The notes beneath the pieces were generated by a model, which worked only from the letters and a program-made list of their open reading frames with translations, had not been told where the DNA came from and did no database searches. From the NCBI RefSeq assembly GCF_036365525.1, contig NC_090378.1, positions 121,071,593 through 121,135,592 of the forward strand: a stretch of DNA of 64,000 nucleotides, written 5' to 3'. Origin of the DNA: Heterodontus francisci (Eukaryota). The position numbers were made by a program, and so were the translations under genes. Positions 2,452-64,000 of this stretch are shown here, piece after piece. How positions within the stretch are numbered: the stretch's first letter is position 1; each line of letters begins with the position of its first letter.

Positions 2452-3398
2452 TGTTCTGACCAGGTGATGAAAGTCTCTAGGGGTCTTTCACAGCCTTCAC
2501 CTGGTCTTACTGTAACAAGATTTAATTTGAAACACACTGTGTTTTGAGCTCCTTCTCGGTGAATCCTTGTTCACCGCTTTCCAATTGTGAGGCAAAGAAA
2601 TGAGCACAAACAGGTTTTCTTAGGTTTAAAGAAGAAAAGTGAAATTTATTAAAACATAAACTAAAACTGTAATTCAGTTAACGCGTACGGATACACGCCA
2701 TGCCCCACGCTAGCATGCATATGCGATACGAACATGCAAATAGAGACAGAAAAGAGCAGAAGAAAAATAAAGTACAGAGGTTTGAGGTAATCTCTGAAGA
2801 GAGTTTTTGTTACTGTGCTTCGAGCTCACTGGAGTCCTTGCTTGTCGGTAGATCTTGCTTTTCATTGGGGCCCAGTATTCTTCTTAAACCTTGTTCACTG
2901 TGGGAGACTTTTCCCTCTTGCGGTTCATATGTCTTCAATGATTTCTGAAGCTGGTGAGAGAGATGAAAGCCGATGGGAGAGAGACAGTGGCAAGCCAGCC
3001 ATGAAAAGTCTTTTCAGTCCAGGAGCAAACAGCTTTCTGAGTTCAAATTCTCTGTGGCAAGTTCAAATTCAAAAAACTACAACAGCCAGTTAGTCATGTG
3101 ACTAAACTGGTCTGGCCATGTCCGATGGTGTTGTCGGCCATCTTAGTAGTCAAGCCGGAATGGGAGCTCCTCACCCTCAATGTCTGGTAATCAAAAGTCC
3201 ATTGTGGATTAAATTTGTCAGGAAATGATCTTTTGTCCCTTCCAAGTACTGTCTGTTACTATGCAAATGTCTTTCCAGTTCAGGGTCAGTTTTTTTTTAA
3301 AGCAAGTTCTTTCTTCACTCCAGTGACAGTTTAAAAATCAACGTTCATATGGTGAAATTAATGTGCCTCATTCTTGGCAGGTGGGGGCCTGCATGACA
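2452..3398 (-). mobile_element. Solo LTR of a Gypsy (Gmr1-like) family
   Basis: Minus strand reads TGTCATGCAGGCCCCCAC...GGTCAGAACA (TG..CA). Homologous to 30977-31666 and to the LTR at 53414 that precedes a gag. TSD not convincing. Confidence 0.8.
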
Positions 3399-4007
3399 CT
3401 GATATTTATCTCTGAACCAACATCACTAAAAATGCTCATTTACCTTAATGCTATTGCGGGATCTTGCTGTGCACAAATTGTCTGCCACATTTCCTACATT
3501 CCAACAGTGACTGCTCTTTAAACAAGTCCTTCATTGTCTGTAAATGACTTTGGGAGGTCCTGAGGTGTGAAATACTCGATATAAATACAAGTCTTTCTTT
3601 TCTTTTTATTAACCGGGAGCTCCCACAATACCCCTGTTGATTAAAGCTGAACCCAGCAGAAAATCCACAGAAAACTGACTAATGTTTGTCTGATTTGTCT
3701 GTGTGTTTATTAGACATGACTGAGCAGATAGCAAGAGTTTCAGCAGCAACAAAGGTGTTACTCTAGTGCCCCTCCCACTTTCCCCATCGACTTACATAAT
3801 ACTTACGGGGAAAGGGCTCAGCACCTGCCATCGACTGGTTAAATGTCACCCCTCTAGACTACAGGTCTCCCACAATCTGCTCTCCATCTCTCTCCTGAAG
3901 GCACTATCTCTGGCTGGGGCACAGCTCCACCCTCCCCAAGTGGCCTCATTCCTCCAAGTGTGAGCCGGGAGGTTGAGAATGGCAGGCTATTCGACTGTGA
4001 GGTGTTA

Positions 4008-11325: not shown

Positions 11326-11539
11326 CTACCATATCATACTTCCAAGTGCAGTCGAACACAATTTAACCAGTTGAACATCAAACCATCCACTGTCTTTGTA
11401 TTTTAGACTAAACCTAGCAAGCGAGGCAAATTAAGAAGTGATGGTGCTCATTTCTAACGATTCAACACCAGCCGTAGTTCATCAACCCAGCTGTCTGTTA
11501 TCTGATGTGACATATCCAAACACAGAAACACCCACAGAA

Positions 11540-12660
11540 ACATACACATAAATATACACATAGAACACACAAATATACACAGAGAATACACAAATGTACA
11601 GACAGAACACACAAATATATACAAAAGCATACAAATATATACAGGACACACCAATACAGACAGAAGACACAAATATATACATGGAACACACAAATATACA
11701 CATGGAACACACAAATATATACATGGAACACACAAATATATACATGGAACACACAAATGTACAGACAGAACACACAAATATACACATGGAACACACAAAT
11801 ATACACATGGAACACACAAATATATACATGGAACACACAAATATATACATGGAACACACAAATGTACAGACAGAACACACAAATATAGACATGGAACACA
11901 CAAATACACACATGGAACACACAAATATACACATGGAACACACAAATATATACATGGAACACACAAATATACACATGGAACACACAAATATAGACATGGA
12001 ACACACAAATATACACATGGAACACACAAATATATACATGGAACACACAAATGTACAGACAGAACACACAAATATAGACATGGAACACACAAATATACAC
12101 ATGGAACACACAAATATATACATGGAACACACAAATATAGACATGGAACACACAAATGTACAGACAGAACACACAAATATAGACATGGAACACACAAATA
12201 TACACATGGAACACACAAATATACACATGGAACACACAAATATATACATGGAACACACAAATGTACAGACAGAACACACAAATATAGACATGGAACACAC
12301 AAATATACACATGGAACACACAAATATATACATGGAACACACAAATATATACATGGAACACACAAATGTACAGACAGAACACACAAATATACACATGGAA
12401 CACACAAATATATACATGGAACACACAAATGTACAGACAGAACACACAAATATACACATGGAACACACAAATATATACATGGAACACACAAATATACACA
12501 TGGAACACACAAATATAGACATGGAACACACAAATATACACATGGAACACACAAATATACACATGGAACACACAGATATACACATGGGACACACAAATAT
12601 ATATATGGAAGACACAAATATACAGAGAGCACAAAATATACACATAGAACACAGAAATAC
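11540..12660. repeat. 21-bp minisatellite (ACACACAAATATACACATGGA)n, roughly 50 copies, just upstream of the C-exon acceptor
   Basis: Direct tandem periodicity; 7-aa repeats in the ORF track. Confidence 0.97.
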
Positions 12661-12701
12661 ACAAACATGCAGTGATTCACAGTATTTCTCTTCTCTTTCA
12701 G

Positions 12702-13030
12702 GCCGAGAAAAGTCTCAACCCACACTGACCCTGATGCCCCCCTCCCCGGAGGAGGTCAAGGCCAAGGGCACTGCCACCCTGTTGTGCCTTGCCGATCACT
12801 TCTATCCCGATGAAGTGGGGGTGGAGTGGAAGAAGGACGGTGCAGCCATTTCGGCCGGGGTTCAGACCAGCAACTACCTGCGAGCTTCGGACAGCACCTA
12901 CAGTGTCAGCAGCCTGCTGACCATCTCTGGCTCCGACTGGGAGTCCAATGCCCGCTTCTCCTGTGCCCTCACCCATGAGACCCTCTCCTCTCCCCTCAGT
13001 AAGAGTGTGAGCAGATCAGAATGTGTGTAG
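12702..13030 (+). CDS. IGKC: Immunoglobulin light-chain constant exon, kappa type (NS4/type III-like)
   Basis: C1-set domain REKSQPTLTLMPPSPEEVKAKGTATLLCLADHFYP...VEWKKD...DSTYSVSSLL...FSCALTH...SRSECV*, with both canonical Cys, the Trp and the penultimate interchain Cys; no stops or frameshifts. Confidence 0.97.
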
Positions 13031-30976: not shown

Positions 30977-31666
30977 AAAATACTTAAAACTTAAACTAAA
31001 AACTCTAATTCGGTTAACGCCTACGCATACACGCTGTGCCCCACGCTAGCATGCATGTGCGATACATACATGCAATTAGAGACAGAAAAGAGCTAAAGAA
31101 AAAATAAAGTAGAGAGGTTTGAGGCAATATCAGAAGAGTTTCTTATTACTGTGCTTCGAGCTCACTGTCATTCTTTCGAGGTCGTTCTTGCTTGCAGGTA
31201 ATTTTTGCTTTTCGTTGGGGCCCAGTATTCTTCTTAAACCTTGTTCACTGTAGGAGACTTTTCTCTCTTGAGGTTCCTGTGTCTTCAATCGATTCCAAAG
31301 CTGGGGTGAAAGAGATGAGCAGACAGGAGAGAGGCGGCAGCAAGCCAGCCATGAGAGGTCTTTTCCAGTCCAGGAGCAAACAGTTTTCTGAGTGTAAAAC
31401 ACTATGTGGCAAGTTCAAATTCAAACAGGCAGTTAGTCATGTGACTAAACTGGTCTGACCAGGTCTTCTGTGTATTGGAGAAGCAGGGACTGGTTCCTTT
31501 GTTCCAGCACTGGCTGCTAGTTTGCAAAAAAGGTCTTTCTGGCGAGGGGCCTGGCAATTCCTTGTGATAGGCCCCCTTTCCATCCCAGCAGCAATGTTAA
31601 ATTTTAATGTTCATGTGGTGAAATAATGTGTGCCTCATTCTTGGCAGGTGCGGGGCCTGCATGACA
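30977..31666 (-). mobile_element. Truncated copy of the Gmr1-like LTR
   Basis: Collinear with 2655-3398; same TGTCATGCAGGCCCC start on the minus strand. Confidence 0.85.
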
Positions 31667-31669
31667 GTC

Positions 31670-31910
31670 TATGTGGAGGCCTATAGAAAACCCCCAGTTG
31701 TGTGATCATCCCCTTTTGTTTCTCAACACTAACCAAATGGATTCTGTCTTTGTCCCCTCAATAACATCCTTCCTTTCCAACACTACAATGTCTTCTCTAA
31801 TCAGTACTCCTACTCCACCTCCATTTTTACCTTCCCTAACTTTTCTGAACACTTTGTATCCTTGAATATTAAGCACCCAGTTCTTGTCAAATTGAAGCCA
31901 CATTTCCATT
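31670..31910 (-). mobile_element. CR1 endonuclease fragment
   Basis: WVLNIQGYKVFRKVREGKNGGGVGVLIRE...ESIWLVLRNKRG. Confidence 0.8.
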
Positions 31911-32159: not shown

Positions 32160-35100
32160 TAGATACTGACCTATTCCTGATGTTAAAACATGACGACATT
32201 CACTATATTTCCCACTCCATAAACAAACACAACAATGTGGGGTTTTAAACAGCTTCTGTTGTTCAGATTTCATACTTCGTATAAAAATTGTGAACTTGAG
32301 AAATATTTCCTGCAAAGTACTGTTTGATGTAATGATTAATAAATTATATTGTCCTACTTGCTATTCGATGTTTTCATTTGAAAATTGTATCTGATCTATT
32401 TGAAAACAGGAGTTGAGTGAGTGTGACTGAGTGATCGGACGGCTCAGTGCAATATGTGATCAACAGTGATGTCTCAGCACAGCTTTCCCTTCTTATCTGA
32501 GGGAGGTTTTCAACAAGTATCACTTTGGAAACTCCATCTGGACATTGTGTTCTGTCCCAGGGCAGCTCCATCTGGACATTGTGTTCTCCCCCAGGACAGC
32601 TCCATCTGGACATTGTGTTCTCCCCCAGGGCAGCTCCATCTGGACATTGTGTTCGGTCCCAGGACAGCTCCATCTGGACATTGTGTTCTCCCCCAGGGCA
32701 GCTCCATCTGGACATTGTGTTCTGCCCCAGGGCAGCTCCATCTGGACATTGAGTTCTCCCCCAGGGCAGCTCAATCTGGACATTGTGTTCTGTCCCAGGG
32801 CAGCTCCATCTGGACATTGTGTTCTGCCCCAGGGCAGCTCCATCTGGACATTGAGTTCTCCCCCAGGGCAGCTCAATCTGGACATTGTGTTCTGTCCCAG
32901 GGCAGCTCCATCTGGACATTGTGTTCTGTCCCAGGGCAGCTCCATCTGGACATTGAGTTCTCCCCCAGGGCAGCTCAATCTGGACATTGTGTTCTGTCCC
33001 AGGGCAGCTCCATCTGGACATTGTGTTCTCCCCCAGGGCAGCTCCATCTGGACAATGTGTTCTGTCCCAGGGCAGCTCCATCTGGACATTGTGTTCTGTC
33101 CCAGGGCAGCTCCATCTGGACATTGTGTTCTCCCCCAGGGCAGCTCCATCTGGACAATGTGTTCTGTCCCAGGGCAGCTCCATCTGGACATTGTGTTCTG
33201 TCCCAGGGCAGCTCCATCTGGACATTGTGTTCTGTCCCAGGACAGCTCCATCTGGACATTGTGTTCTGTCCCAGGGCAGCTCCATCTGGACATTGTGTTC
33301 TCCCCCAAAGCAGCTCCATCTGGACATTGTGTTCGGTCCCAGGACAGCTCCATCTGGACATTGTGTTCTGTCCCAGGGCAGCTCCATCTGGACATTGTGT
33401 TCTCCCCCAGGGCAGCTCCATCTGGACATTGAGTTCTCCCCCAGGGCAGCTCAATCTGGACATTGTGTTCTGTCCCAGGGCAGCTCCATCTGGACATTGT
33501 GTTCTGTCCCAGGGCAGCTCCATCTGGACATTGTGTTCTCCCCCAGGGCAGCTCCAGCTGGACAATGTGTTCTGTCCCAGGGCAGCTCCATCTGGACATT
33601 GTGTTCTGTCCCAGGGCAGCTCCATCTGGACATTGTGTTCTCCCCCAGGGCAGCTCCATCTGGACAATGTGTTCTGTCCCAGGGCAGCTCCATCTGGACA
33701 TTGTGTTCTCCCCCAGGGCAGCTCCATCTGGACATTGTGTTCTCCCCCAGGGCAGCTCCATCTGGACATTGTGTTCTGTCCCAGGGCAGCTCCATCTGGA
33801 CATTGTGTTCTGAACCAGGGCAGCTCCATCTGCACATTGTGTTCTGTCCCAGGACAGCTCTATCTGGACATTGTGTTCTGTCCCAGGACAGCTCCATCTG
33901 GACATTGTGTTCTCCCCCAGGGCAGCTCCATCTGGACATTGTGTTCTGTCCCAGGACAGCTCCATCTGGACATTGTGTTCTCCCCCAGGGCAGCTCCATT
34001 TGGACATTGTGTTCTGTCCCAGAGCAGCTCCATCTGGACATTGTGTTCTGTCCCAGGGCAGCTCCATCTGGACATTGTGTTCTCCCCCAGGGCAGCTCCA
34101 TCTGGACATTGTGTTCTGTCCCAGAGCAGCTCCATCTGGACATTGTGTTCTGTCCCAGGGCAGCTCCATCTGGACATTGTGTTCTGTCCCAGAGCAGCTT
34201 TATCTGGACATTGTGTTCTGTCCCAGGGCAGCTCCATCTGGACATTGTGTTCTGTCCCAGGGCAGCTCCATCTGGACATTGTGTTCTGTCCCAGAGCAGC
34301 TCCATCTGGACATTGTGTTCTGTCCCAGGGCAGCTCCATCTGGACATTGTGTTCTGTCCCAGGGCCGCTCCATCTGGACATTGTGTTCTGTCCCAGAGCA
34401 GCTCCATCTGGACATTGTGTTCTGTCCCATGGCAGCTCCATTTGGACATTGTGTTCTGTCCCAGGGCAGCTCCATCTGGACATTGTGTTCTGTCCCAGGG
34501 CAGCTCCATCTGGACATTGTGTTCTGTCCCAGGGCAGCTCCATCTGGACATTGTGTTCTGTCCCAGAGCAGCTCCATCTGGACATTGTGTTCTGTCCCAT
34601 GGCAGCTCCATCTGGACATTGTGTTCTGTCCCAGGGCAGCTCCATCTGGACATTGTGTTCTCCCCCAGGGCAACACCATCTGGACATTGTGTTCTGTCCC
34701 ATGGCAGCTCCATCTGGACATTGTGTTCTCCCCCCGGGCAGCTCCATCTGGACATTGTGTTCTGTCCCAGGGCAACTCCATCTGGACATTGTGTTCTGAA
34801 CCAGGGCAGCTCCATCTGGACATTGTATTCTGTCCCAGGACAGCTCCATCTGGACATTGTGTTCTGTCCCAGGGCAGCTCCATCTGGACATTGTGTTCTC
34901 CCCCAGGGCAACACCATCTGGACATTGTGTTCTGTCCCAGGGCAGCTCCATCTGGACATTGTGTTCTGTCACAGGGCAACTCCATCTGGAAATTGTGTTC
35001 TGTCCCAGGGCAGCTCCATCTGGACATTGTGTTCTCCCCCAGGGCAACACCATCTGGACATTGTGCTCTGTCACAGGGCAGCTCCATCTGGACATTGTGT

Positions 35101-36045
35101 TCTCCCCCTGGGCAGCTCCATCTGGACATTGTGTTCTGTCACAGGGCAGCTCCATCTGGACATTGTGTTCTCCCCCAGGGCAACACCATCTGGACATTGT
35201 GTTCTGTCCCAGGGCAGCTCCATCTGGACATTGTGTTCTGTCACAGGGCAGCTCCATCTGGACATTGTGTTCTCCCTCAGGGCAGCTCCATCTGGACATT
35301 GTGTTCTGCCCCAGGGCAGCTCCATCTGGACATTGTGTTCTGTCCCAGGGCAGCTCCATCTGGACATTGAGTTCTCCCCCAGGGCAGCTCCATCTGGACA
35401 TTGTGTTCTGTCCCAGGGCATCTCCATCTGGACATTGAGTTCTCCCCCAGGGCAGCTCCATCTGGACATTGTGTTCTGTCCCGGGACAGCTCCATCTGGA
35501 CGTTGTGTTCTGTCCCAGGGCAGCTCCATCTGGACATTCCCCCAAAGTTGAACTTAACATAGTATTCCACACAAATTACAGTGTTGTCTGTCTCTAGAAG
35601 ATTCATGGTGAAAAGTCCAGCTCTCTGACTCTGTGCTGTTCTCCCATGTGAATTGCACTGCACCACTGGGTAACAATACATCCTGGTATGTTGGTTGTTC
35701 CCATGTCCTTATTGGCCATTGAGGATTCACAATGTCTATTAAGGAAAGGAGCTCTGGTTACTGGAGAACAGTGAGTTTGGAAGTTGTGACTGAGACCTTT
35801 CTCTGATTGTTGTGTCTTCTGAGAGTTGGAACTGGTGAGTCTGATTGTACATCAGAACCAGCATCAGTCAGATCCAATGTTGGGAAGTTCAGCGAGGGAA
35901 TGACTTTCCAGTTTTAAGGCACAATTATAGGCCACTGGAACTCTGTATAAATTCCACAATAGTGTAACAGGACAAGATTCCAGGTCTCAGACTTAACAAT
36001 GAGCTGAAAAGTCACAGATATGAGCAGACAAAAAGCAAGTTCCAT
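32160..36045 (-). pseudogene. Candidate decayed LRR receptor gene B, interrupted by the 34-bp minisatellite
   Basis: Signal-like MELAFCLLISVTFQLIVKS from 36045, then SCP; LRR cores MLVLMYNQ, GLSHN, VRELDFS-MNLLET (one frameshift), FGGMS..ELxLGQN; after the array STLQEIFL and KLFKTPHCCVCLW (LRRCT-like). Confidence 0.5.
32530..35538. repeat. 34-bp minisatellite (GGCAGCTCCATCTGGACATTGTGTTCTGTCCCAG)n, ~88 copies
   Basis: Uniform tandem array with no unique spacers. Confidence 0.98.
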
Positions 36046-47860: not shown

Positions 47861-48457
47861 TCCGTGTTTTGCAAAAGATCAGAACAGAACCTCTTCAGTC
47901 ATTGCACTGAATTCCCTCAATCCCCAATTCTCCGAGTTAGGTATCTGTTGAAGCAGTACTCCATCAAGCTGGACTTGGTGCTGGGTTGCTGTGTGAGCCT
48001 GCAAGCCCCTTTGAGCACTGGCATCCACAGCCATGATGGCAGCAGTCTGAGCCTGTGTGGCAGCAAGCTCAGATTACAATACCTCAGTCTGAGCTTCCAC
48101 TGCAGCACTCAGACATTGGGGTGGCCTCTACTTGTACTGCAATTCACTCATCCATGTCTCTGATAGTCTGGAAATGTTAATCTGCTCACTTGTGTTTATA
48201 ATATTCAAATCATCAGAGGAATTTGTAACAGCAATATAATCATGGAGCTTCAGAGGGCAATATAACCATTGAAACAGGATGATTTGAAGGGATAGAGAGG
48301 AATAAAGAGCCTATGCTGGCTCCATGTGGTTATTCTAATATCACTTTTATGTATCTTTGATGTCCTCTGATTCAGTGGCAGTATGAATGGAATGTAGATG
48401 TAGACAAAGTAGAATTAGGATAAGACTTGTGAGTGAAACACTGCATGTTGTATTCAT

Positions 48458-51400
48458 ACTGGATTGTGAAGTGTGATGTATCTGAGTACACAGACTGGAT
48501 TGTGAAGTGTGATGAACCTGAGTACACAGACTGGATTGTGAAGTGTGATGAACCTGAGTACACAGACTGCAGTGTGAAGTTTGATGTACCGGAGTACACA
48601 GACTGGATTGTGAAGTGTGATGTACCTGAGTACACAGACCAGATTGTGAAGTGTGATGTCCCTGAGTCCACAGAATGGATTGTGAAGTGTGATGTACCTG
48701 AGTACACGGACTGGAATGTGAAGTGTAATGTACCTGAGTACACAGACCGGATTGTGAAGTGTGATGTATCTGAGTACACAGTTCAGATTGTGAAGTGTGA
48801 TGTACCTGAGTACACAGACTGGATTGTGAAGTGTGATGTAACTGAGTACACGGACCAGATTGTGAAGTGTGATGTACCTGAGTACACAGTCCGTATTGTG
48901 AAGTGTGATGTACCTGAGTACACAGACTGGATTGTGAAGTGTGATGTACCTGAGTACACAGACCAGATTGTGAAGTGTGATGTCCCTGAGTCCACAGAAT
49001 GGATTGTGAAGTGTGATGTACCTGAGTACACGGACTGGAATGTGAAGTGTAATGTACCTGAGTACACAGACCGGATTGTGAAGTGTGATGTATCTGAGTA
49101 CACAGTTCAGATTGTGAAGTGTGATGTACCTGAGTACACAGACTGGATTGTGAAGTGTGATGTAACTGAGTACACGGACCAGATTGTGAAGTGTGATGTA
49201 CCTGAGTACACAGTCCGTATTGTGAAGTGTGATGTACCTGAGTACACAGACTGGATTGTGAAGTGTGATGTACCTGAGTGCACAGACTGGATTGTGAAGT
49301 GTGATGTACCTGAGTGCACAGACTGGACTGTGAAGTGTGATGTATCTGAGTACATAGACTGGACTGTGAAGTGAGATGTACCTGAGTACACAGACTGGAT
49401 TGTGAAGTATGATGTACCTGAGTACACAGTCCGTATTGTGAAGTGTGATGTACCTGAATACACAGACTGGATTGTGAAGTGTGATGTACCTGAGTGCACA
49501 GACTGGACTGTGAAGTGTGATGTATCTGAGTACACAGACTGGATTGTGAAGTGTGATGTACCTGAGTACACAGACTGGATTGTGAAGTGTGATGTACCTG
49601 AGTACATAGACCGGATTGTGAAGTGTGATGTATCTGAGTACACAGTCCGTATTGTAAAGTGTGATGTACCGGAGTACACAGACCGGATTGTGAAGTGTGG
49701 TGTATCTGAGTACACAGTCCGGATTGTGAAGTGTGATGTATCTGAGTACACAGACTGGATTGTGAAGTGTGATGTACCTGAGTACACAGACTCGATTGAG
49801 AAGTGTGATGTACCTGAGTACACAGACCGGATTGTGAAGTGTGATGTCCCTGAGTCCACAGAATGGATTGTGAAGTGTGATGTATCTGAGTACACAGTTG
49901 GGATTGTGAAGTGTGATGTACCTGAGTACACAGACCAGATTGTGAAGTGTGATGTACCAGAGCACACGGACTGGATTGTGAAGTGTGATGTACCTGAGTA
50001 CACAGACCGGATTGTGAAGTGTGATTTATCTGAGTACACAGTTCGGATTGTGAAGTGTGATGTACCAGAGTACATAGACTGGATTGTGAAGTGTGATGTA
50101 ACTGAGTACACAGACTGGATTGTGAAGTGTGATGTAACTGAGTACACGGACCAGATTGTGAAGTGTGATGTACCTGAGTACACATACTCGATTGTGCAGT
50201 GTGATGTACCTGAGTACACAGACCGTATTGTGAAGTGTGATGTAACTGAGTACACGGACCAGATTGTGAAGTGTGATGTACCTGAGTACACAGACTGGAT
50301 TGTGAAGTGTGATGTACCTGAGTGCACAGACTGGACTGTGAAGTGTGATGTATCTGAGTACATAGACTGGACTGTGAAGTGTGATGTACTTGAGTAAACA
50401 GACTGGATTGTGAAGTGTGATGTACCTGAGTACACAGAATGGATTGTGAAGTGTGATGTACTTGAGTACACAGACTGGATTGTGAAGTGTGATGTATCTG
50501 AGTACACAGACTGGATTGTGAAGTGTGATGTACTTGGGTACACAGACTGGATTGTGAAGTGTGATGTACCTGAGTGCACAGACTGGATTGTGAAGTGTGA
50601 TGTACCTGAGTGCACAGACTGGATTGTGAAGTGTGATGTATCCGAGTACACAGACTGGATTGTGAAGTGTAATGTACCTGAGTACACAGACCGGATAGTG
50701 AAGTGTGATGTACCTGAGTACACAGACTGGATTGTGAAGTGTGATGTACTTGAGTAAACAGACTGGATTGTGAAGTGTGATGTACCTGAGTACAAGACTG
50801 GATTGTGAAGTGTGGTGTACCTGAGTACAAGACTGGATTGTGAAGTGTGATGTACCTGAGTACACAGACTGGATTGTGAAGTGTGATGTATCTGAGTCCA
50901 CAGTCCGGATAGTGAAGTGTGATGTATCTGAGTGCACAGACTCGATTGTGACGTGTGATGTACCTGAGTACACAGACCGGATTGTGAAGAGTGATGTCCC
51001 TGAGTCCACAGAATGGATTGTGAAGTGTGATGTATCTGAGTACACAGACCAGATTGTGAAGTGTGATGCACCAGAGCACACGGACTGGATTGTGAAGTCT
51101 GATGTACCTGAGTACACGGACTGGATTGTGAAGTGTGATGTACCTGAGTACACAGACTGCATTGTGAAGTGTGATGTACCTGAGTACACAGACCAGATTG
51201 TGAAGTGTGATGTAACTGAGTACACAGACTGGATTGTGAAGTGTGATGTAACTGAGTACACGGACCAGATTGTGAAGTGTGATCTACCTGAGTACACAGA
51301 CTGGATTGTGAAGTGTGATGTACCTGAGTACACAGTCAGTATTGTGAACTGTGATGTACCTGAGTACACAGATTGGATTGTGAAGTGTGATGTAACTGAG

Positions 51401-51982
51401 TACACGGACCAGATTGTGAAGTGTGATGTGCATGATTGCACAGACTGGATTGTGAAGTGTGATGTACCTGAGTGCACAGACTGGACTGTGAAGTGTGATG
51501 TAATTGAGTACATAGACTGGACTGTGAAGTGTGATGTACCTGAGTACACAGACTGGATTGTGAAGTGTGATGTACCTGAGTACACAGACTGAATTGTGAA
51601 GTGTGATGTACCTATGTACCGAGACTGCATTGTGAAGTGTGATGTACTTGAGTAAACAGACTGGATTGTGAAGTGTGATGTACCTGAGTACACAGACTGG
51701 ATTGTGAAGTGTGATGTACTTGAGTACACAGACTGGATTGTGAAGTGTGATGTACCTGAGTACACAGACTGGATTGTGAAGTGTGATGTACCTGAGTACA
51801 CAGACTGGATTGTGAAGTGTGATGTCCCTGAGTACACAGACCAGATTGTGATGTGTGATGTATCTGAGTACACAGACTGGATTGTGAAGTGTGATGTATC
51901 TGAGTACAAAGAGTGCATTGTGAAGTGTGATGTACCTGAGTACACAGACTGGATTGTGAAGTGTGTTGTACCTGAGTACCTG
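48458..51982. repeat. 36-bp minisatellite (GACTGGATTGTGAAGTGTGATGTACCTGAGTACACA)n, ~98 copies
   Basis: Tandem array with 12-aa periodic ORFs; two 34-bp deletion units near 50790-50830 shift the frame. Confidence 0.98.
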
Positions 51983-52115
51983 AGGTGGTGGGGGCGGGGA
52001 GGGCGGGGGGTGGGGGGTGTTGGTGGTGGTGTGGGTGCGGTGGGGGCGCGGGGAGGGCGGGTGGGGGGGGGGGGTGTTGGTGGTGGTGTGGGGGCGGTGG
52101 GGGGTCGGAGGTGTG
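51983..52115 (+). repeat. G-rich tract (two ~60-bp units), G-quadruplex-prone
   Basis: Many G3-G12 runs; 'ggggtgttggtggtggtgtggg' occurs twice. Confidence 0.8.
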
Positions 52116-55100
52116 GGCTGATGTTGGAAGTCATACTGACCACATCAGATATTCTGTGGATATGCCCACTGTCATTTTCCAGCTGATGATCAATAATAAA
52201 AAATACTTACTGGGGAAAACTGGTACAAATCAGGAGGAAAAACAAAGACCTTGCATATGAAGAATGCAAATAGTTCACTATATTGTTTTCCAGCGACTAG
52301 GCCATTGAAGTGTATGTGGCTTTGTTACTCTGTTTTGATCAGCTGTTGTAAAAACATGGTAACACTGCTGTTACCCAGTCACTGGCCTTGGTTTCGAGGA
52401 TACGGCTATCAATAAAGGTCAGATGGTCTCATTCAAGTAGGTGAGCTCTCAATTCATGAAACATGCAGATGGCAGTAATTATGGGCAGTGAAGTAACATT
52501 ATTTATATATGAAGTACACACATCATACCAGAACTTTGCTTCCATTTCAAAATAAAATCACAAAACATTTATGCACTGAAATGTATTTTAGTAACTTTTT
52601 AAAACAAATTACATAATATAAAAGGAATATGGAAAATATTTACAAAAATGTACACTTAGAAAATGTCACAAATAACTCAGATGATTTCCTTTAATATCTG
52701 TGTCTACTGTTGTTGGCAAAGCCCAGATTCTGAACCTTTTTATAGTGAGTGGCTTTCTGTAATTGTGTCTGATTAGTAAATCCTTTACAGGGCACCAAGT
52801 GATGGATAGGAGGAGGAAAGAAAATACATAGGCCTCCCAAAACCAGGGTAATGAGCTCCATAAAGACCCTCCTCATCACAGCACATAGATTCATATTGGG
52901 AAAGGACACTTGAACAGTGTGTGTGGAAGACACTAGAAATGTTAAAGTGCTTCAACACTTGCTTTCTCTGCTGGTTAATTTACACATAGTGCAAAACTGA
53001 ATTTCATTGGGTCTCATATACTGTTAAGACATTCTTGGCATTTTTGCTACTTTGAAGGGATTTTGTTTTGGATAAATCTATTGAGTGAACATACAGAATC
53101 AATGCTGTCCTACACCTGTGAAGTGATTGCACTAAAATGAAGAGGTCAATGAATTGGTGTCTTATGAGGATCTTGAACATCAAGGCCCCTGCACTTTCAC
53201 TCACAAAGGGTATTGCTTATTCTTTTAACAGATCACTGTAGGCTAGCCCACACGGGATAATGGCAGTTCCAAGTAATTGAACACAAATAAGGATAAATGG
53301 GGGACAAAAATAAGTGTAAAAGTATTCATATCTCAGGGATCTGGTCCCCCCTCTGCATCCTTTGAAGATTTCTTTCCCAAACAAGGCTAACATTTACAAA
53401 TATATATATACATTGTCATGCAGGCCCCCACCAGCCAAGAATGAGGCACATTAATTTCACCACATGCACGTTAAACTTCAAATTGTTGCTGGGAAAAGAG
53501 GGCCTCTTACAAGAAATTTCCAGGCCCCTGGCCAGAAATACATTTTTGCAAACTAGCAGACAGTGTTGGCACAAAGGAACCAGTCCCTGCTCCCGATACA
53601 CAGACGACGTGGTTAGACTAGTTTAGTCACATGACTGTAATAAATAATTATAATATAGCATTTGCAGTATTGTGCTTTTATTTGAGTCACATGACTAACT
53701 GGCTGTTGCAGGTTTTGAACTCGCCACAGTGAATTTGAAGACAGAAAGCTACTGGCTCCTGGATTGAGAACATCTCACTCCTGTCTGCTCTCATCTCATT
53801 CTCCCCAGCTTTGAAATCCATTGAAGACACAAGAAACCCAAGAGAAAGAAATGTCTCCGACAGCGAGCAAGGTTTAAGAATACTGGGCCCCAATGAAAAG
53901 CAAGAATTACCTACAAGAAAGAACTACCGACAAAAGGACTCTACAGTGAGCTCGAAGCACAGTAACAAGAAACTGTTCAGAGATTGCCTCAAATCTCTCC
54001 ACTTGATTTTTCTTCTCTTTCTGTCTCTATTTGCATGTGCCTATTGCGTATGCATGCGAGCTGAAGGATTATCATTTTTAATCCAAGACTTTACTCGCCA
54101 GGGGTAACATCCCAGTTGGGGGAAAATGGCTGTGAAAAGTCGAGTGTTGAAAACACAGTTACCAGAGGACAGGCTGTTGGTCTCACATCGGAAAGGACAA
54201 GCTTTTCAAATGCCAAACCAAAACCCACTCCACCCAACAGAGACATTGCCTTCTGCTCTCAACCAGCCACCCACATCATCACTGGTTCCAAGGTGCCTAA
54301 GGAGACAATGAAAGCCACCGGTTTTATATATAATCAAGTCAATCGGACAACAGAACCCATCGGAAACAGTTCACACCTCGTATAGTACTCAACTAGATGA
54401 TGCAAGACCAACAGTTCCCACTGTCCGTCCGCCCCCTCCCCCACCGAAACCAGCTAGATGAGAGGAGGGAAAATACTACAGATTCAAACAAAGCTTTCTC
54501 TCCAGGGACCAATCAAAGCATTTTCCATCGTCTGACAAGATCAGTCAGAAAAAAAGGGAACATTCTGGTTTTTGTGGAAAAAGCAAGACCGCTGATCAGT
54601 CGAAGTGAAGCAGCCTGAGGAAAGAGAGGGTCGAGCAGTTGATGTCAAATGGACAGCTGCCACACAGCTCTACAGGACAGAAGATCAGAGCACGCTGCTC
54701 CCTCTACAACCAGGACCAAAGGAAGTCGCATGCCCTAAGGAATGGGTACGGCCCCAAGGACTTCGATCGTAGAAGACACGACCCGGCATCCAAAGTCAGC
54801 AGGGTGAGCATTTCATCCACAGCCTGCAGAATACTCAACTCACAGCCATGTGGAGAGTTACCTCTGCATGTCCCGACCAAACCTTAGAAAAGTGGGTTAG
54901 TGTCGTGTTGGGAGTTAACTGACTGTGAGTTAGGGAACACAGAGGGGATTAGTTTAAGAAGTCCAAGGGGAAGTAATCTATTTGTTGTTCGTCATATAGG
55001 AACATTAGCATGGGTTTTGCCATATTGATATTTACTGTACATATTAAACATACTTTTATAATTCGAAATCTGAAACCTGTGTCGATTGAATTATTTATCA

Positions 55101-55140
55101 TCCTTCAGTGTGATTCATAAGGCTAAGCCCAGACCTTCGA

Positions 55141-58100
55141 CCACTTTGGCTGGTCACGAAACCGGACAATTCGTGGAGAGCTACTGTGGACTATCGAGTC
55201 CTCAATAAAAACATTCCAGCATACGCGCCTGCAGTGACAGCAGTAGCTGACCTCATAGGGAGCATGCCAGCCACCGCAACCACATTTTCAGTGCTGGATA
55301 TTTCAAACAGGTTCTGTTCAATCCCCTTGAAATAGGAGGACTGGTATAAGTTCACTTTCACTTTTAAAGGCCAACAATATACTTGGCCTTGTCTTCCCCA
55401 GGGCTTCTACAACTGTATCTATCATTCACCAGAGCATGGCTGATGCACTCAAAGCGTTCAGCCGGCCACACCAACTAGTCCAATACATGGACGATTTGTT
55501 GCTCTTCTCAGAGGGGGAGGAGAAACATGGCCCATTATTAGCAGAGTTGCTGGGGCTAACGAAGGAAATGGAATTCAAGGTGAATCCCAAGAAAGCCCAG
55601 ATTGGTCAGCCTGAAGTAAAATTTCTGGGTTTGACCATGCTGGCAGGAAAGCGCTGCATAGATGAGGCAAGGAGGAAGGCAATACAGGAGTTGCCAGCGC
55701 CGAAAGACGTGACCGGGGTAAGGTCTTTCCTGGGGCTCACAGGGTACTGCCACAACTTCATTGAGCGCTACACCACCACAGCAGCCTCTCTGCTCCGGCT
55801 CCTCCTGAAGGGAGTCGGATGGGAGTGGGATGAGAACTGCCAGGCAGTGTTAGTGTGCCTCAAGGAGGACCTCCAAATGGCACCAGCACGAGTGGTGATT
55901 AATGGGGGTGAGAGTTTCTTCTTGGAAGTAACCTCCAGTGGGGATACCTTAGGTGCAGTGTTGCTCCAGGAGTGTACTCCTCAAGGGTCCTCATAGACGT
56001 GGAGCAAGGATACTCCAATTGCGAAAGGCATCTTCTATACCACCTATTGGGCCATGAAACACTCTCAGCTTTTCACGGGGTGCTCGCTCATCACATTGTT
56101 AACTATCCATATCCCCACTCAAATACTGCTGGACGGAAGAATAAAGGACGGCACAGAGACCAGTGCTCACATTGCGCGCTGGACTTTACTACTGTCTCAG
56201 CTAAATTTGAAAGTGCTGGGGCTCACGGAGCCCAAACTCACCATGAACCTCACATATGCAGGGGAAGCTCTTAGGTGCACCGTTGAAGGGGTTTGGGATC
56301 GCGATGTAGGGGTCAAGGCCGCAGTCCAACCTTCCGGCAGGGACACCTATGTTGCTGGATCAGGTTCTGTCGTAAACGGGACGCGACTCACGGGATGTGG
56401 GATTTGTGACCTTCAGGCCAAGGTGGCCAAGGCAATTAAACTCCCCGACACCATGAGTGTCCGATACACAGAATTCTCAGTGGTGGCGTATGTGGTTACA
56501 CATCCCGAGGAATTCCCCCCTCCTTTCACCATTTGTTTGGACTTGATGTTCACCTGCAACCCGTGTACCGAATATCTGGCAATTTGGAGCCACCGTGACT
56601 TTAAAGCAGCAGACGGGAAACCCTTTACAACGGCCCCTTTGTTGAAAATGATCCTTGCGGCCGTAGGCAGTGGAGAGGACTTTTACATCCACAAAGTGAA
56701 AGCCCACTCCAGGTCAGAGCCGAGGTGGCAGGGAAACTTTAAGGCCAACGAGCTTGAAAAACAGGGAACAAGAGAGAGAGAATTCTGGGATCCCTATCAG
56801 GCAGGGCTGCTCACAGCACTTCGGGACAAAGGAGGGACCCAGGAGATAGTGTTAGCCCCTGACCTAACCAAGGTCTGGGCAGAGGACTCGGCTATCAGAG
56901 CGGTCCGAGAAAAGCTGGTTCGGGAAGAAAAGGTTGAAGGTGCGGTCGGGGCAGCGGACATGGTTGTCAAAGAGGGTATGCTCTTTAAGGGGGATCGATG
57001 GGTAGTTCCCGAACAGCACCGGGAACAATTTCTTCAGTTGGCCCACGTGGGTCTGGGAACAGGGCAGCCAGGGCCAGAAACCACCTGGAAGAGGGTAGAG
57101 GAGGTAGGGTGTTGGGCCCAGCTCAGGGAAGAAGCTTGGGAGTTCTGTGTGAACTGTTTGGTGTGCACGGTGAACAACCCTGATCCCCAGAAAAGAAAGG
57201 CACCCTTAGGACACGCGAGAAGGGTAGAGGGGCCATGGTGGTCTTTGCAGATCGACTTTATTGGACTGCTACCGAGGACAAAGGCTGGGAACAAGTACTG
57301 CTTGGTCCTGGTCGATGTATTCGCCAAGTTGGTCGAAGCTTTTCCTTGTAGATCAGCCACCGCACTAGCAACCGTGAGGCTGCTGGGGAGAGAGTTGTAA
57401 TCCTGGTGGGGATTACCACATGTGGTGGAATCCTACCAGGGGAGTCATTTCACAGGCCAGGTCAGGAGGAATACCCTCAGACTCTTGGGAATACACGGAA
57501 GGTGGCATGTGTCTCACAATCCCCAGTCTTCAGGGATTGTGGAGCGCATGAACCAAACTTTAAAAGAAAGGATGAGGAAGGAGATAGGGTTGTTCCCTCA
57601 GTGCTGGGATGAAGTCCTTCCATTGATTCTAATGGGAGTTCGATCCAGTCCCTCTAAAAGCACAAGGTACTGCCCACATGTGCTCATGACGGGAAGAGTA
57701 ATGAAAGCTCCCATACATGTGACAGCTCCAGGGCTATCAGAGCTACAGGTGAGGGAGGTCATCCAGGATCATTTTGTGCAGAATCTGTACGAGACACTCC
57801 AGAGCATTCACTGACAGGCTGTCAGCAATCTGGGGAAGCAGCATCGCCAGAGCCAGTTGCTGCAAGAACCACAGTGCTGCCAGGAATGGAAGATAGGAGA
57901 CATGATGATGGTGAGGAATTACGCCCGGGGAGGGGTTTTCGAACCACTGGACATGGGGACGTACAACATCGTTGATGAGGCGAGCCCCATGGTCTATGCA
58001 GTGAAGCCTCCCAGGAGGACAAAATGGTTTCACATCAACCAGTGTAAACTGTTTACTCCTGAGGAAGGGAAGGTAACGGTCAAAAGGAGCCCAGGCCCAG

Positions 58101-58333
58101 TCATGAGTCTGGTGGATACGGGCCTGTCACTGTTCATCTGGGACGATGACGAGGACCCAATATCCGGGGCTGTAAGGAGGAGCAACAGGACCTCAAGGCC
58201 AAGAGTTCCATGGCCATCTCCCGACGAGCCAGTGCAGAAACACAAGAGGCCCTGGCTGGATACCATCTGGCCGTGGGTGCCTCAAGTAAGGCAGTGGAGT
58301 TTTGTAGATAGTTTTTCCATGTTTTGTAAATAA
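55141..58333 (+). pseudogene. pol: pol (RT, tether, RNase H, integrase), frameshifted
   Basis: PLWLVTKPDNSWRATVDYR, QYMDDLLL, RSFLGLTGYC, YSNCERHL; second RNase H DTYVAGS...KAADGKP...HKVKAH...GNFKANEL; IN CVNCLVC, LQIDFIG, PQSSGIVERMNQTLK. Confidence 0.9.
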
Positions 58334-58425
58334 GCAGTTGGACCTGTGGAGGATCAAACCTCTCACAGAGGATTATGCATTCGGTCAGTTTGTTTTCAAG
58401 CAGGGAAACATCAGAAGAATGAACG

Positions 58426-60650
58426 ATGCAGACCTCCCGATGGGAATTCATATTATTGATGGCCGTATAGACCGGCAGGGTGAGAAGGGGAGACACTGAA
58501 GCATCCATTCTGTGCGGGGGCTCTGGAGGACACGGACCCACTGTGACTAAAGGTGATACAGGGGTGATGGACGGACAGAGGGTCTATTTCCACAAGGGAA
58601 GGTGGCCAGGGTGGGTGGGGTCGAATTCGGCCAGGCACATGAACCACGCTGGCTACACTTTCGGGGAGGCTTCCATGCCGTGTGTAAAAATAAAGGTTAC
58701 TGCCACGAGGGTTAGGGTGACTGAAGGGAAAAGCGTCTATCTCAGACGTGAAGGAAACATTCCCCGGGAATTTGGTGGTGGTTGAGAAAGTTAGACCCAG
58801 TAAAAGGGAACCAGACCACGGACCGGGAATGACTGGGGAACGACACATAACGGATGATCACGGGGTAGAAAGGGGTGTAGAGGTGTGCTGGAACAAGTGG
58901 TGGAAGGAGGAACAGGGCATTTACGTGTGTGTGGGGGGGTCTCTGAGGGCCTGCCCCAAAGGAATGTCGATTGCGTTTATAAGGCAATGGGAGGATTTCA
59001 GGGCAGGGGTGGGTTGGCACAGGAATATGGTCTCCGGGGAAACCCTGAGACATCCCAACACAGTAAATGCCACAGAACTTGTTGCCCAGGAAAGAAAGCC
59101 TCTGTCCACAGCCCCACTGGTAAGGGGAGCTGAGATCAATTGCCCCGCCACCACACCGGGCTCAGGGAATGGCTTGGTTTTAGTCCCCACAGGAAAGATA
59201 CTGTACCACATGGTGCACCATCAGGTCATTTCAGTTGTTTGAAACCTGATCTGTGTGCATCTGCCAGAATGGTGTCTGGTGGAAATGGAGCATTTGTATG
59301 AAACCCTGCTCCAGGAAATGTACCATCAATTTTATGAGTTAATTTAATGGGATGTACAGTTAGATGTATTGTATACACAGGATAAGGAGAGCAGCGTTGG
59401 CTCTATAAGGTACAAATGGGGATTGATAAATGATGCTGCAACCGCTTTCGGCACAGGAACGTCAGCCATCAATAGTTTAGATGATGCTGAATTGCAGATT
59501 CAGGTCAATACCCTCAGAACCAGTTACGAAAGGTCCTGGGAGAGGGGAACGCGGTCGAGGCAGGGGAGTTGCATGAAGACCAGGCTATGACTATCCATTT
59601 AAGGGAGGTCATAGCACAGTTGGAGTCTCAGGCACACTCCATTAACGAGTTAATCAAGGAGGATAGGAATGCCTCGGCTCAGACTGCAAGGAATGACACG
59701 TGTGTACTTTATGGGGCCTGGTTGCTAAATGAAGGACGCAGTAATTGGAGGACCTGAGGGAAGATCACGTTCCTTCTTGGGTTAGTAACAGGCACCTCAG
59801 TCTGTACAGCAACCGTTTGAGCCCGTGTCAGCTCAGGCTGGCTTCAGAAGCCTACCCGGTTCCTGTGGACTGTGGTCAGTCAAACCACATGATTATGGGG
59901 ATAGTGTTGCGGATGCCAGTACTGAGCTAGACCCAAACGCCTGCACCGGTGTACCACGTGGAGAGCATCGGCGTCATCTGAGTTGGGGTATACGTGCACT
60001 ATCGTGAGGTCCCACTGTACGTGGTTAGGTGGGAGCAAGCCATGACTGACAGTGACCTCAAAGGCTGCCAGGTGCAGGCCTGTGTGTGGGTTTAAATACA
60101 AAGGCTTAGAGCCAGTCAATTGCACCATGGAGGTGATGGTCCTGGCCCACGTGTCACCTCAGGTAGCATATTCTGGCAGTGGAACATACTGTGTGACGAC
60201 TCGCCTCGACCACGACAGGGTTCACAACGACACCTGGTGTCCTGTGAACAAGCGGCCCTTCTGCTTTAAACCCCGCACAGAGGTTCAGAATTCTTCCCAC
60301 AATCGAGACCACAGTTCACCTCGACATTAACAAGTCTGTAGACAATCTACAGAGTTACATCACCACGTACGGGTATGAGATACCAGCCCTGCCCGTACAT
60401 CTCAAAAAACTCCTAAAACAAGTGGTGGTGTCCCAAAAACATTTTTACACATTCGAACAATGCAACAGAGAGAAGGTGGGAGAAGGTGGAAGAAATAAAA
60501 GACATAACGTCCCCTCCATGGTGGGATTTCAGTTTAAATGTAGAGATCCCAATTGATGTTTCACCTCCTGGCAGTGGCACAGTCTAGAGTAGTGTGTTAC
60601 TTGGTTTTTATTGACTGCAGAAACGCAAGAAAGCCCTCCGACGCCAATGG
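58426..60650 (+). pseudogene. env: env-like class I fusion glycoprotein, frameshifted
   Basis: Acceptor-like tttgttttcaagcag (58389-58403), then ATG with a hydrophobic leader; RYKW|GLINDAATAFGTGTSAINSL (degenerate furin site plus fusion-peptide-like segment); heptads LQIQVNTL and LREVIAQLESQAHSINELI; Cys-rich region; PPWWDF before a hydrophobic/basic end. Confidence 0.7.
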
Positions 60651-61904
60651 ATTGCTCTCACCGAGAGAAAATTGTGATTTTAAAGATTTGGGTCAGGAGG
60701 GAAGAGTTATTTTTGCAGACTGTATAAAACCAGTACTTGTATGTACAAAGGTTTTTCTCTTTTCTGTATACTGTAAAGTGAAGTTTCTATGTGGCATAAG
60801 AGAGGAGAGTTTTTGCCAAGGCTATATGTTTTGACAAGAGGAATGTACTGTCTTGTTTGTATGTGTTTTAGCAATAGTAAGTTTGTTTAAAGCGGGAGGG
60901 AGGGTTTCCCCAGAGTTTAGTTTAACGGGGAAGGATATGGTTTGATTTGAACATGAGGGGTGCTCACACACGACAAGAAGAGGACGAAGGAAGATATTTG
61001 TGCAAGGGGTCTCAGTCTCGGTAGACAGAAGATCCTCGTAGGGGCAACTAAAGGATTATCATTTTTAATCCAAGACTTTATTCGCCAGGAGTAACACCCC
61101 AGTTTGGGGAAAATGGCTGTAAAAAGGACAGTGATTAAAACACAGTTACCAGAGGACAGGCTGTTGGTCTCAGACCAGGAAGGACAAGCTTTTCAAATGC
61201 TGAACCAAAACTCACTCCACGCAACAGAGACATTGCCTTCTGCTCTCAGCCAGCCACCCACATCACCACAGGTTCCAAGCTGCCCCAGGAGACAATGAAA
61301 TCCATCAGTTGATATAATCAAGTCAATCGGTCTGGACAACAGAACTCATCGGAAACAGTTCACACCTTGTATAGTACTCAACTAGATGACGCAAGACCAA
61401 CAGTTCCCACTGTCCGTCCCCCCCTCCCCCACCGAAACCAGCTAGATGAGAGGCGGGAAAATACTACAGATTCAAACAAAGCTTTCTCTCCAGGGACCAA
61501 TCAAAACATTTTCCATCGTCTGACAAGATCAGTCAGAAAAAAAGGGAACATTCCGGTTTTGGTGGAAAAAGCAAGACCGCTGATCAGTAGAAGTGAAGCA
61601 GCCTGAGGAAGGAGAGGATTGAACAGTTAATGTCAAATGGACAGCAGCCACACAGCTCTCCAGGACAGAAGATCAGAGCACGCTGCTCCCTCTACAACCA
61701 GGACCAAAGGAAGTCGCATGCCCTAAGGAATGGTTACGGCTCCAAGGACTTCGATCGTAGAAGACACGACCCGGCATCCAAAGTCAGCAGGATGAGCATT
61801 TCATCCACAGCCTGTAGAATACTCAACTCACAGCCATGTGGAGAGTTACCTCTGCATGTCCCGACCAAACCTTAGAAAAGGGGGTTAGTGTCGTGTTGGG
61901 AGTT

Positions 61905-62233
61905 TAGTTTAGTTTTAGAGATACAGCACTGAAACAGGCCCTTCGGCCCACCGAGTCTGTGCCAACCATCAACCACCCATTTATACTAATCCTACACTAA
62001 TTCCATATTCCTACCACATCCCCAACTGTCCCTATATTTCCCTACCACCTACCTATGCTAGGGGCAATTTATAATGGCCAATTAACCTATCAACCTGCAA
62101 GTCTTTGGCATGTGGGAGAAAACCTACGCAGACACAGGGAGAACTTGCAAACTCCACACAGGCAGTACCCAGAATTGAACCCGGGTCGCTGGAGCTGTGA
62201 GGCTGCGGTGCTAACCACTGCGCCACTGTGCCG
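61905..62233 (-). mobile_element. HE1-type V-SINE inserted in the 3' LTR
   Basis: Absent from the 5' LTR, where the site reads GGGAGTT-AACTGA-CTGTGAG. Confidence 0.93.
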
Positions 62234-64000
62234 CTGTGAGTTAGGGAACACAGAGGGGCTTAGTTTAAGAAGTCCAAGGGAAGGTAATCTATTTTTTGTT
62301 AGTCATATAGGAACATTAGCATGGGTTTTGCCATATTGAGATTCGCAGTACATATTGAACACACTTTCATTATTAAAAATCTGAAACCTCTGTCAATTGC
62401 ATCATTCATCATCCTTCACTGTGATTCATGAAGGTAAGCCCAGACCTTCGACTGTAAATAAGTGGGTTCGGTCTTGACCAGCAAGGCTGAATGAACCTCC
62501 CACGATCTGAAACACCCTACAGGGCGTGGGGCGTGATGTGTATCCGTGGGCATTAACCAAATTACCGTTTAAATTTTAATAAAGTTGACTTTTCTTCTTT
62601 AAACCTAAGAAAGCCTGTTTGTGCTCATTTATTTGCCTTATGTTTGGAAAGCGGTGAACAAGGATTCACCAAAGGGGGAGCTCCAAACTAGCAGTTCACC
62701 AAGTCAGGGTGAAGTAACTTGGGATAACTTAAAAGCAATGCTATAGAGGAGTTGAGGAACACGGCTGAGCAGTGTGGGATCACAGTACTAGGAAGTCTGA
62801 ACTCCAAAGGCTAGTGGCCAACTATTGTCTCCTTGAATCTGAAGAAGCAGAAACAGGGTCAGAAGCAGAATCCGACAGGGTATTGTTACCAAGGGAAAAT
62901 TGGAACAGAGGAAACTTGACTTTGAGGAAAGAGAGTGGGAGAAGGAGAGAGCCTTCCAAAAAAGAACGGTAAGAGAAAGACAGAGCCTTCCAGAAAGGAA
63001 TGAGAAGAGAGAGAGAGAAAGACAGGAGAAGGAACAAGAGAGAGAGGAGCGAGAGAGAGAAAGAATATTCCAGAAAGAATCCGAAGAAAGAGAGCTGAAG
63101 TGGCTTGAGTTAACTCAGGGGTGACAGAGTAACCCCAGTGAAAGCATGGCCAATATGGAGCATAATTTAGGCTGGGCAAAAAATTGCTAAAACTCACCGA
63201 ACTAATTCCAAAATTCAACGACGAAGATGTGGAGACCTTTTTTGTCTCTTTTGAGAAACTGGCAAGCCAGCTAAAACAGCCAGCTGAGACCTGGTCTCTT
63301 TTACTACAAAGCAAGCAAACTGGAAAAGCCATGAGGTTTATTCCTTGTTGCCAGATAAGAGTTCAGCAAATTATGAATTGACCAAAAAGGCTATCCTTGG
63401 AGCATATGAACCCTCAAGAAGCAAGCGAATCAAACCTAGCTAGAGTTTAAAACAAGTAAGCAGCTGGCTTTTGACCAGTGGCTGAGGACTCTTAAAATAT
63501 CGCACAGCTATGTGAATCTCAGGGAAGTAGTTCTGTTGGAGGAATTTAAAAACTCTCTCCCACTCTGAATAAAGACCCATGTAGAGGAGCAGTGCGTCCA
63601 GAGAGGCTGGCAAGAGGCCATTCTGGCTGATGAGTTTGCTTTAATTTATAGGTCGGTTTCCCAGGGGAAAACCTTTCCTAATCACTCCCACAAATCCGAA
63701 AAGGACAAAGGGTGGGAAGGTGATCTCCACCCAGGCAATCCTGGGAGAGAAAGGAAAGCAGGAGACACAGGGAGCCCTCCTCCAAACAAAAAGGAAGGTG
63801 CAGTGAGCAAGAGTAAGACCCGAAGACCTGTGTGCCTCCATTGTAATAAAGCAGGGCATTTAAAAGCTGACTGCTGGAAACTAAAGGGAAAACCGATAGA
63901 GTTAATCAGGGCACACCCCGTGAAGACGGGGACCTGGTGCAGAACACAGAACAAGCTGTGGCTTTAACTACAGCAAGAATGCAACCCAGGAAGCTTACTA

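Follow-up and report, generated by a model that had tools for sequence, protein, structure and literature searches.

A decayed provirus in the shark Heterodontus francisci with a probable SnRV-like polymerase and a probable F-type envelope protein

Lokiretroviruses, snakehead retrovirus (SnRV) with its endogenous relatives, and foamy viruses are the closest described systems to the element reported here; published statements on them are cited from the accessible parts of each source. Wang and Han (2021, PMC7947760) defined lokiretroviruses and discussed four scenarios for the origin of the envelope protein (Env), none of which was excluded, and none of the six chondrichthyan genomes in their screen was positive. 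An SnRV-like lineage of endogenous retroviruses (ERVs), CmiERV lineage I, was described in the elephant shark, a chimaera (Han 2015, PMC4422223), and the SnRV-related ERVs of clade Huo are found in all major vertebrate lineages (Xu et al. 2018, PMC6001957). Some SnRV-related Pol proteins carry a gamma-type Env, recombination being frequent (10.1101/2021.11.23.469661), and the Env of foamy viruses is F-like (PMC11468914). Here we analysed 64,000 nucleotides of Heterodontus francisci DNA (contig NC_090378.1, positions 121,071,593 to 121,135,592, forward strand; called the window), near the right end of which lies a provirus that an earlier note, made from the sequence alone, had taken for a lokiretrovirus-like element. 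We consider it quite probable that this is a decayed provirus, deleted for gag and protease, with the polymerase of an SnRV-like ERV and a likely class I Env of the paramyxovirus/pneumovirus fusion protein (F) type. The element would be a new member of the SnRV-like ERV group, a group already published from cartilaginous fish.

The polymerase was placed with trees whose reference rows were labelled by host and by matching motifs to the alignments in the accessible part of the PMC7947760 supplement. Four to five rows represent lokiretroviruses (Labeo, Latimeria, an eel and one unnamed), and the others include SnRV (P0111, genome L095), WDSV, and foamy, gamma, beta and delta viruses from IMG/VR. 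The beta, delta and epsilon labels are partly presumed. Foamy rows in the trees are mammalian only, published members of clade Huo and CmiERV are not among the rows, and the integrase tree has no CGIN1 row. In the reverse transcriptase (RT) tree (59 rows), lokiretroviruses form a clade (100/99) that is sister to a retrovirus clade (100/99), and the latter holds the window element, SnRV, a group of frog, coelacanth and shark elements, foamy viruses and orthoretroviruses. The foamy clade (100/100) excludes the window element, which also lies outside Gypsy (100/100), and the grouping of the element with SnRV is left unresolved by this tree. When RT and tether were combined (37 rows), the retrovirus-side placement was supported 100/98, and under the LG model the window element grouped with SnRV and with frog, coelacanth and turtle elements (81/97); a reduced RT tree gave the SnRV grouping a support of 90. 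It turned out that forcing the shark element together with lokiretroviruses cost 71.5 log units on RT plus tether and was rejected by the approximately unbiased (AU) test (p-AU 0.0002), and that a mixture model (29 rows) still excluded lokiretroviruses (100/97). In the RT and RT plus tether trees and under the mixture model, the window RT falls inside Retroviridae and outside foamy, epsilon, gamma, beta and delta viruses. The RT of its close relative P0001 is 50-60% identical to frog, coelacanth and other group members, 42% to SnRV and 34-36% to lokiretroviruses. The loki integrases likewise form a clade (99) that excludes the window element, in a tree whose deeper nodes are poorly resolved. 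The RT signature of lokiretroviruses, taken from the published alignment, was not found in the window RT, and its exact back-translated pattern had 0 matches in the genome. Since tether and second RNase H are common to all retroviruses, they are not diagnostic of lokiretroviruses. The polymerase is thus placed outside lokiretroviruses, foamy viruses, epsilon and gamma viruses and Gypsy.

The provirus is bounded by long terminal repeats (LTRs) in direct orientation (Table 1), TGAAGG...CCCTACA, about 1.15 kb long, the ends of which were defined from dispersed genome copies; the pair shares 93% and 89% identity on the two sides of an insert of ~325 bp in the 3' LTR. The target-site duplication reads GAGC/GGGC here and GAGC/GAGC in duplicates of the locus, and it is single at empty host sites, while half of the dispersed solo LTRs having both ends (5 of 10) show an exact 4-bp duplication. 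The LTR length and 4-bp duplication of the earlier note are therefore confirmed by the repeat pair, the dispersed copies and the empty sites. Between the LTRs, Pfam matches follow in the order RT (PF00078), RT_RNaseH_2, RNase H (PF00075), integrase zinc finger and integrase core, which bears out the order read earlier, with the YMDD motif of RT at 55484-55495. Two of them fall below the cut-off in this copy, the weak RT_RNaseH_2 match (PF17919, E 0.0012) and, just below it, the second RNase H (E 5.6e-5, some acidic positions decayed), and both pass in a relative. The dual RNase H and the RT tree together uphold a retrovirus-type element and not an ordinary Gypsy.

The 5' LTR is fused to mid-RT at the residue equivalent to 219 of the related Pol P0001, so that the window copy lacks the primer site, gag, protease and the first part of RT; protease and gag are retained in more distant genome copies. 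A pattern of LTR end plus primer site had 0 matches in the genome, the site itself being deleted in the window copy. After pol comes an env-like frame disrupted by stops and frame changes, in which the basic cleavage motif is decayed. This provirus is dead, and the copy is unable to make a functional protein.

For the Env, the window pieces were aligned with natural open frames taken from 20 related loci, and the match extends from cleavage site to anchor. Along this alignment, the cleavage site is followed by a small-residue stretch like a fusion peptide, a long helix with heptads and beta segments rich in Cys, and then by another heptad and the anchor; heptads, fusion-peptide-like segment and Cys-rich ectodomain had all been noticed earlier, and in this copy neither the cleavage motif nor the frame is intact. 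The whole Env is ~730 residues long, with ~380 residues in the post-cleavage ectodomain. A motif scan of the window Env did not find the gamma-type CX6CC and immunosuppressive domain (ISD) motifs. Env tests used a natural frame of 400 residues from a related copy, 53-61% identical to the window pieces. Its nearest feature clusters in a language model are Baculo_F, Gypsy env and PF00523 F0 (0.95-0.92, with a low recognition score). In a Foldseek search of the PDB with its structure model, the first 12 rows are all foamy Env (the best, E 0.01) or F of respiratory syncytial virus or human metapneumovirus, and in a viral structure library torovirus spike and F0 lead. From these features and this low-confidence fold, we judge the shark Env likely to be a class I fusogen of the type of F in paramyxoviruses and pneumoviruses, in agreement with the F-like, not gamma-type Env of the earlier note, except that Pfam adds no match. 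Upstream of it, a frame in a related copy has an immunoglobulin (Ig)-like pattern: nearly all of 50 weak PDB matches are Ig domains (best E 0.004), and Pfam Ig_3 matches weakly (E 0.5). The N-terminal domain of the Env is probably Ig-like, judging from this frame.

The Env of SnRV itself was then compared. Its post-cleavage part is co-linear with the shark Env all the way between cleavage site and anchor, conserved cysteines and strands falling in register, with 16-22% identity, and an alignment of the two by hhalign has E 0.006 and probability 6%. Gamma-type motifs were not found in the post-cleavage part of SnRV Env. By its own features SnRV Env scores as F-type (0.91-0.90), its poor model (pLDDT 44) has F proteins in 41 of the 42 Foldseek rows listed, none under E 0.001, and a faint V-set match (E 0.21) lies at its N-terminus. 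Neither an F-type Env in SnRV or SnRV-like elements nor a lokiretrovirus of sharks was found in the literature searched, which left outside subscription papers, Calcraft et al. 2024, preprint supplements and the supplement of PMC4422223, where the Env of elephant shark ERVs is possibly shown. The accessible parts of 10.1101/2023.10.26.564294, PMC11089739, PMC12583693, PMC11521997, PMC10435555, 10.1101/2024.03.17.585361, PMC12287698 and PMC13709493 report no F-type Env of SnRV-like elements.

Several results weigh against an SnRV-like polymerase joined to an F-type Env. On RT alone, neither the union of the shark element with lokiretroviruses (39/59 rows, p-AU 0.071) nor that of the whole group with lokiretroviruses without SnRV (p 0.20) is rejected, and under the mixture model (29 rows) the SnRV grouping is not resolved. 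Tether and integrase are 37-39% and 42-45% identical to lokiretroviruses versus 26% and 35% to SnRV, RNase H and integrase trees join the element to neither, and the trees contain no rows of ERV-L, fish foamy-like ERVs, lentiviruses or Odin. As for the Env, that of the window and its relatives has no Pfam match at the cut-off, PF00523 included, and its sequence has no matches to solved structures or in the protein database. The related model is poor (pLDDT 51, pTM 0.27), the PDB Foldseek rows of the Env models have E-values of at least 0.01 and TM-scores below 0.2, and a wide aligner returned only coiled coils for the related model. SnRV Env was missed by a hidden Markov model built from the shark Env, and the alignment behind the SnRV Env model was built from shark Env rows, which makes that comparison partly circular.

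Among the alternatives, the one that survives best, unlikely in our judgement, is that the elements of shark, frog and coelacanth form a separate lineage, branching off between lokiretroviruses and the rest of the retroviruses, with SnRV brought near by long-branch effects. The mixture model, the RT-only test of the group with lokiretroviruses, and the nearer identity of tether and integrase to lokiretroviruses speak for it, and so does the fact that the proteins of frog and coelacanth carry no classification by name beyond the labels NYNRIN-like or Gypsy integrase-like. It is opposed by the SnRV clade on RT plus tether and in the reduced RT tree, by the Env that is co-linear with that of SnRV, both having a weak N-terminal Ig-like signal, and by SnRV-like ERVs already described from a chimaera in the accessible text of PMC4422223. 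The "new related lineage" of the earlier note keeps some chance because the SnRV grouping, 81/97 under LG, is not resolved under the mixture model. The note had also named an RT inside a known ERV class as one of two outcomes that would count against it, and that one was found, since the RT groups with SnRV and the frog and coelacanth elements. Its first proposal, a cartilaginous-fish lokiretrovirus, we regard as very improbable. Dual RNase H and F-like Env do fit the description in the accessible text of PMC7947760, and the RT-only AU test and integrase identity given above also speak for it. Nevertheless, the loki clade excludes the window element in all four RT-based trees, the constraint fails on RT plus tether, the RT signature is absent, no chondrichthyan genome of six was positive in that source, and the pre-cleavage part of the Env has ~330 residues versus ~115 in Loki-Xtr. 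An env-bearing Gypsy element or errantivirus, or a chimera with the LTRs of the neighbouring Gypsy element, is hardly credible and was rejected: the top Env feature matches are arthropod Baculo_F and Gypsy env clusters and a SCAN gag follows the 3' LTR, but RT is outside Gypsy, a second RNase H is present, the LTR is found elsewhere, at unrelated sites with 4-bp duplications of its own and at the end of an independent provirus of the window's family, and the SCAN gag belongs to the interrupted host element, whose LTR is split by the insertion.

Set beside the known systems, the SnRV-like provirus shares with SnRV and SnRV-like ERVs the neighbourhood in RT and RT plus tether trees, the dual RNase H and, in relatives, a gag with one zinc knuckle. 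With SnRV it also shares, with weak similarity, a long Env with a basic cleavage site, a long Cys-rich post-cleavage ectodomain and no CX6CC or ISD, as well as the Ig-like signal at the Env N-terminus, which for the shark comes from a related copy. It differs from SnRV in RT (only 42% identity), in Env length (~730 versus 1,134 residues), in tether, RNase H and integrase that do not group with SnRV, and in being an endogenous, deleted and broken copy. It resembles lokiretroviruses in having both a tether and RNase H and an F-like Env that includes a fusion peptide and a coiled coil, and its relatives follow the plan LTR-gag-pol-env; it differs from them in an RT outside their clade and without their signature, in a much longer pre-cleavage part and in the absence of a PF00523 match by HMMER. 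Like foamy viruses, it has an F-type Env scaffold with an added receptor-binding part, and the best PDB row is the post-fusion foamy Env; unlike them, its RT lies outside the foamy clade, its Env has no sequence-level similarity to theirs, and the gag of relatives carries a zinc knuckle. To our knowledge, foamy Gag has none. Errantiviruses, which are env-carrying Ty3/Gypsy elements, have an F-type Env (10.1101/2023.10.26.564294), a type that the shark Env shares by features, but the window RT is retroviral, with tether and second RNase H, and the host is a vertebrate.

The parent would have been an enveloped virus with an Env cut at a basic site, which may have bound cells through its N-terminal, probably Ig-like domain and fused membranes by heptad refolding as F proteins do. 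Integration would have taken place in the germ line, at a site within the LTR of a Gypsy-type element with a SCAN gag, and this LTR is indeed split by the provirus. Solo LTRs of this host element with an empty insertion site stand at window 2541-3409 and 31045-31672. Reverse transcription copies one U5 into both LTRs, and only the 5' LTR is cut, so the deletion most likely arose after integration, as the 3' LTR keeps the U5 end missing from the 5' LTR. Primer site and gag-pro would thus have been lost in place. The copies examined on contigs C8, C9, C23 and C44 have a common site, deletion, ~2 kb of upstream flank and >6 kb of downstream flank, which makes the close copies duplicates of one insertion. 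The downstream flank of the window is common to 28 of the 30 best LTR loci (among 40 matches to the LTR 3' end in the genome), and a solo LTR occupies the window's insertion site in 15 loci fetched. The provirus would therefore have multiplied passively, as part of a segment that was itself duplicated, and in some of the duplicates it would have been reduced to a solo LTR. The LTRs diverge by 0.0735 (Kimura two-parameter distance, 1,074 columns), corresponding to about 17 million years at a mammalian rate (PMC7947760) or about 167 million years at an assumed shark rate (PMC4422223).

The family is abundant in this genome, with at least 161 matches to tether-RNase H and at least 150 to the env piece (150 of 150 scored). 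The search for intact copies that the earlier note had suggested gave close copies sharing the deletion and a sister lineage with an open gag-pol frame, in which a zinc knuckle and a retroviral protease precede pol domains that all pass Pfam cut-offs. The nearest proteins to the window Pol are an unnamed Logan Pol (58%) and a Heptranchias perlo protein (61%), followed by the frog and coelacanth proteins.

If SnRV-like viruses, on the retrovirus side of the loki split, have an F-type Env, an F-type ancestor with later replacement would be the simplest scenario. We put forward tentatively, as a possibility about as easily wrong as right, that F-type Env is ancestral in retroviruses and the gamma/beta type a later replacement, a step that would be recorded in the shark, frog and coelacanth group as a deep clade, abundant and so far without a name. 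In this scenario lokiretroviruses, the SnRV-like shark lineage with SnRV, and foamy viruses, which are the three deepest branches in the trees, would all have F-type Env, and the receptor-binding addition would differ in each, an Ig-like domain in the shark lineage. It is open to structural test on SnRV, which is exogenous. A lokiretrovirus, for its part, is not identified by the combination of dual RNase H with an F-like Env. The locus itself is an inert relic, and its value is comparative.

Table 1. Features of the provirus and its host element (positions in the window)
Feature	Position	Strand	Basis
Left part of LTR of interrupted host Gypsy-type element	53402..54061	+	
Left target-site duplication copy (GAGC)	54058..54061	+	Empty host sites carry one copy
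5' LTR without last ~69 bp, joined to mid-RT	54062..55141	+	Repeat comparison, duplicates
RT, N-terminally truncated; frame change near 55410	55141..55825	+	PF00078; tblastn with P0001
Connection/tether (degenerate first RNase H); out-of-frame stretch near 55966-56094	55826..56270	+	PF17919 E 0.0012; PF17917/PF17919 strong in relatives
Second, retrovirus-type RNase H, partly decayed	56357..56767	+	PF00075 E 5.6e-5; tree
Integrase (zinc finger 57005-57181, core 57236-57523) and pol C-terminus; in-frame stops	57005..58333	+	PF17921, PF00665
env, pre-cleavage part: signal-peptide-like start, probable Ig-like domain near 58650-58950, F2-like strand and helix; broken	58426..59407	+	
env, decayed cleavage site and F1-like part: fusion-peptide-like segment, long heptad helix, Cys-rich beta domains, second heptad, anchor region; frame changes near 59515, 59745, 60070 and beyond	59408..60620	+	Alignment
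3' LTR, complete, interrupted by insert	61049..62521	+	Repeat comparison
SINE-like insert (short interspersed nuclear element) within 3' LTR; two further copies in window	61905..62233	-	
Right target-site duplication copy (GGGC; GAGC in duplicates)	62522..62525	+	
Right part of host LTR and broken SCAN/zinc-knuckle gag of host element, outside provirus	62522..63997	+	PF02023, PF00098

We take the insert in the 3' LTR to resemble the shark V-SINE/HE1. The window belongs to an array whose duplicated segments run in both orientations (C8, about 116.9-124.4 Mb; window 52090-64000), further copies of which are on C9, C23, C44, C25 and unplaced contigs, and the shared unit begins right after a 36-bp minisatellite. 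At 48350-52100 there is a long 36-bp tandem repeat with ~90% identity between units and several frames open, and two more tandem-repeat arrays, at 32400-35600 and 11450-13030, also give long repetitive open frames.

Other relatives differ in their state of preservation. P0085, P0086 and P0094 (frog, coelacanth) represent many full-length Pol, with 24 cluster members in frogs, which suggests a recently active, unnamed family there. L013/L014, L023-L026 and L091-L094 form a younger sister lineage of the SnRV-like group with long open gag and pol frames. Among the env-like frames read in it, two are reduced to the anchor and the C-terminal portion of the F-like ectodomain, perhaps the sign of a branch with a reduced env that moves by retrotransposition; in a third the N-terminal part is different and a SINE interrupts the frame. 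This genome also contains F-like env of at least two other types, with 28-44% identity to the window pieces, at L111:1846-3438, L112, L113, L119, L123-L127 and L130, and one of these other types has an open frame of 531 codons with no pol match in the 6.5 kb upstream. Besides, on C3, at about 182-186 Mb, a fragment of a related provirus (72-75% protein identity) recurs in >30 copies at intervals of ~90 kb, which suggests another large tandem array.

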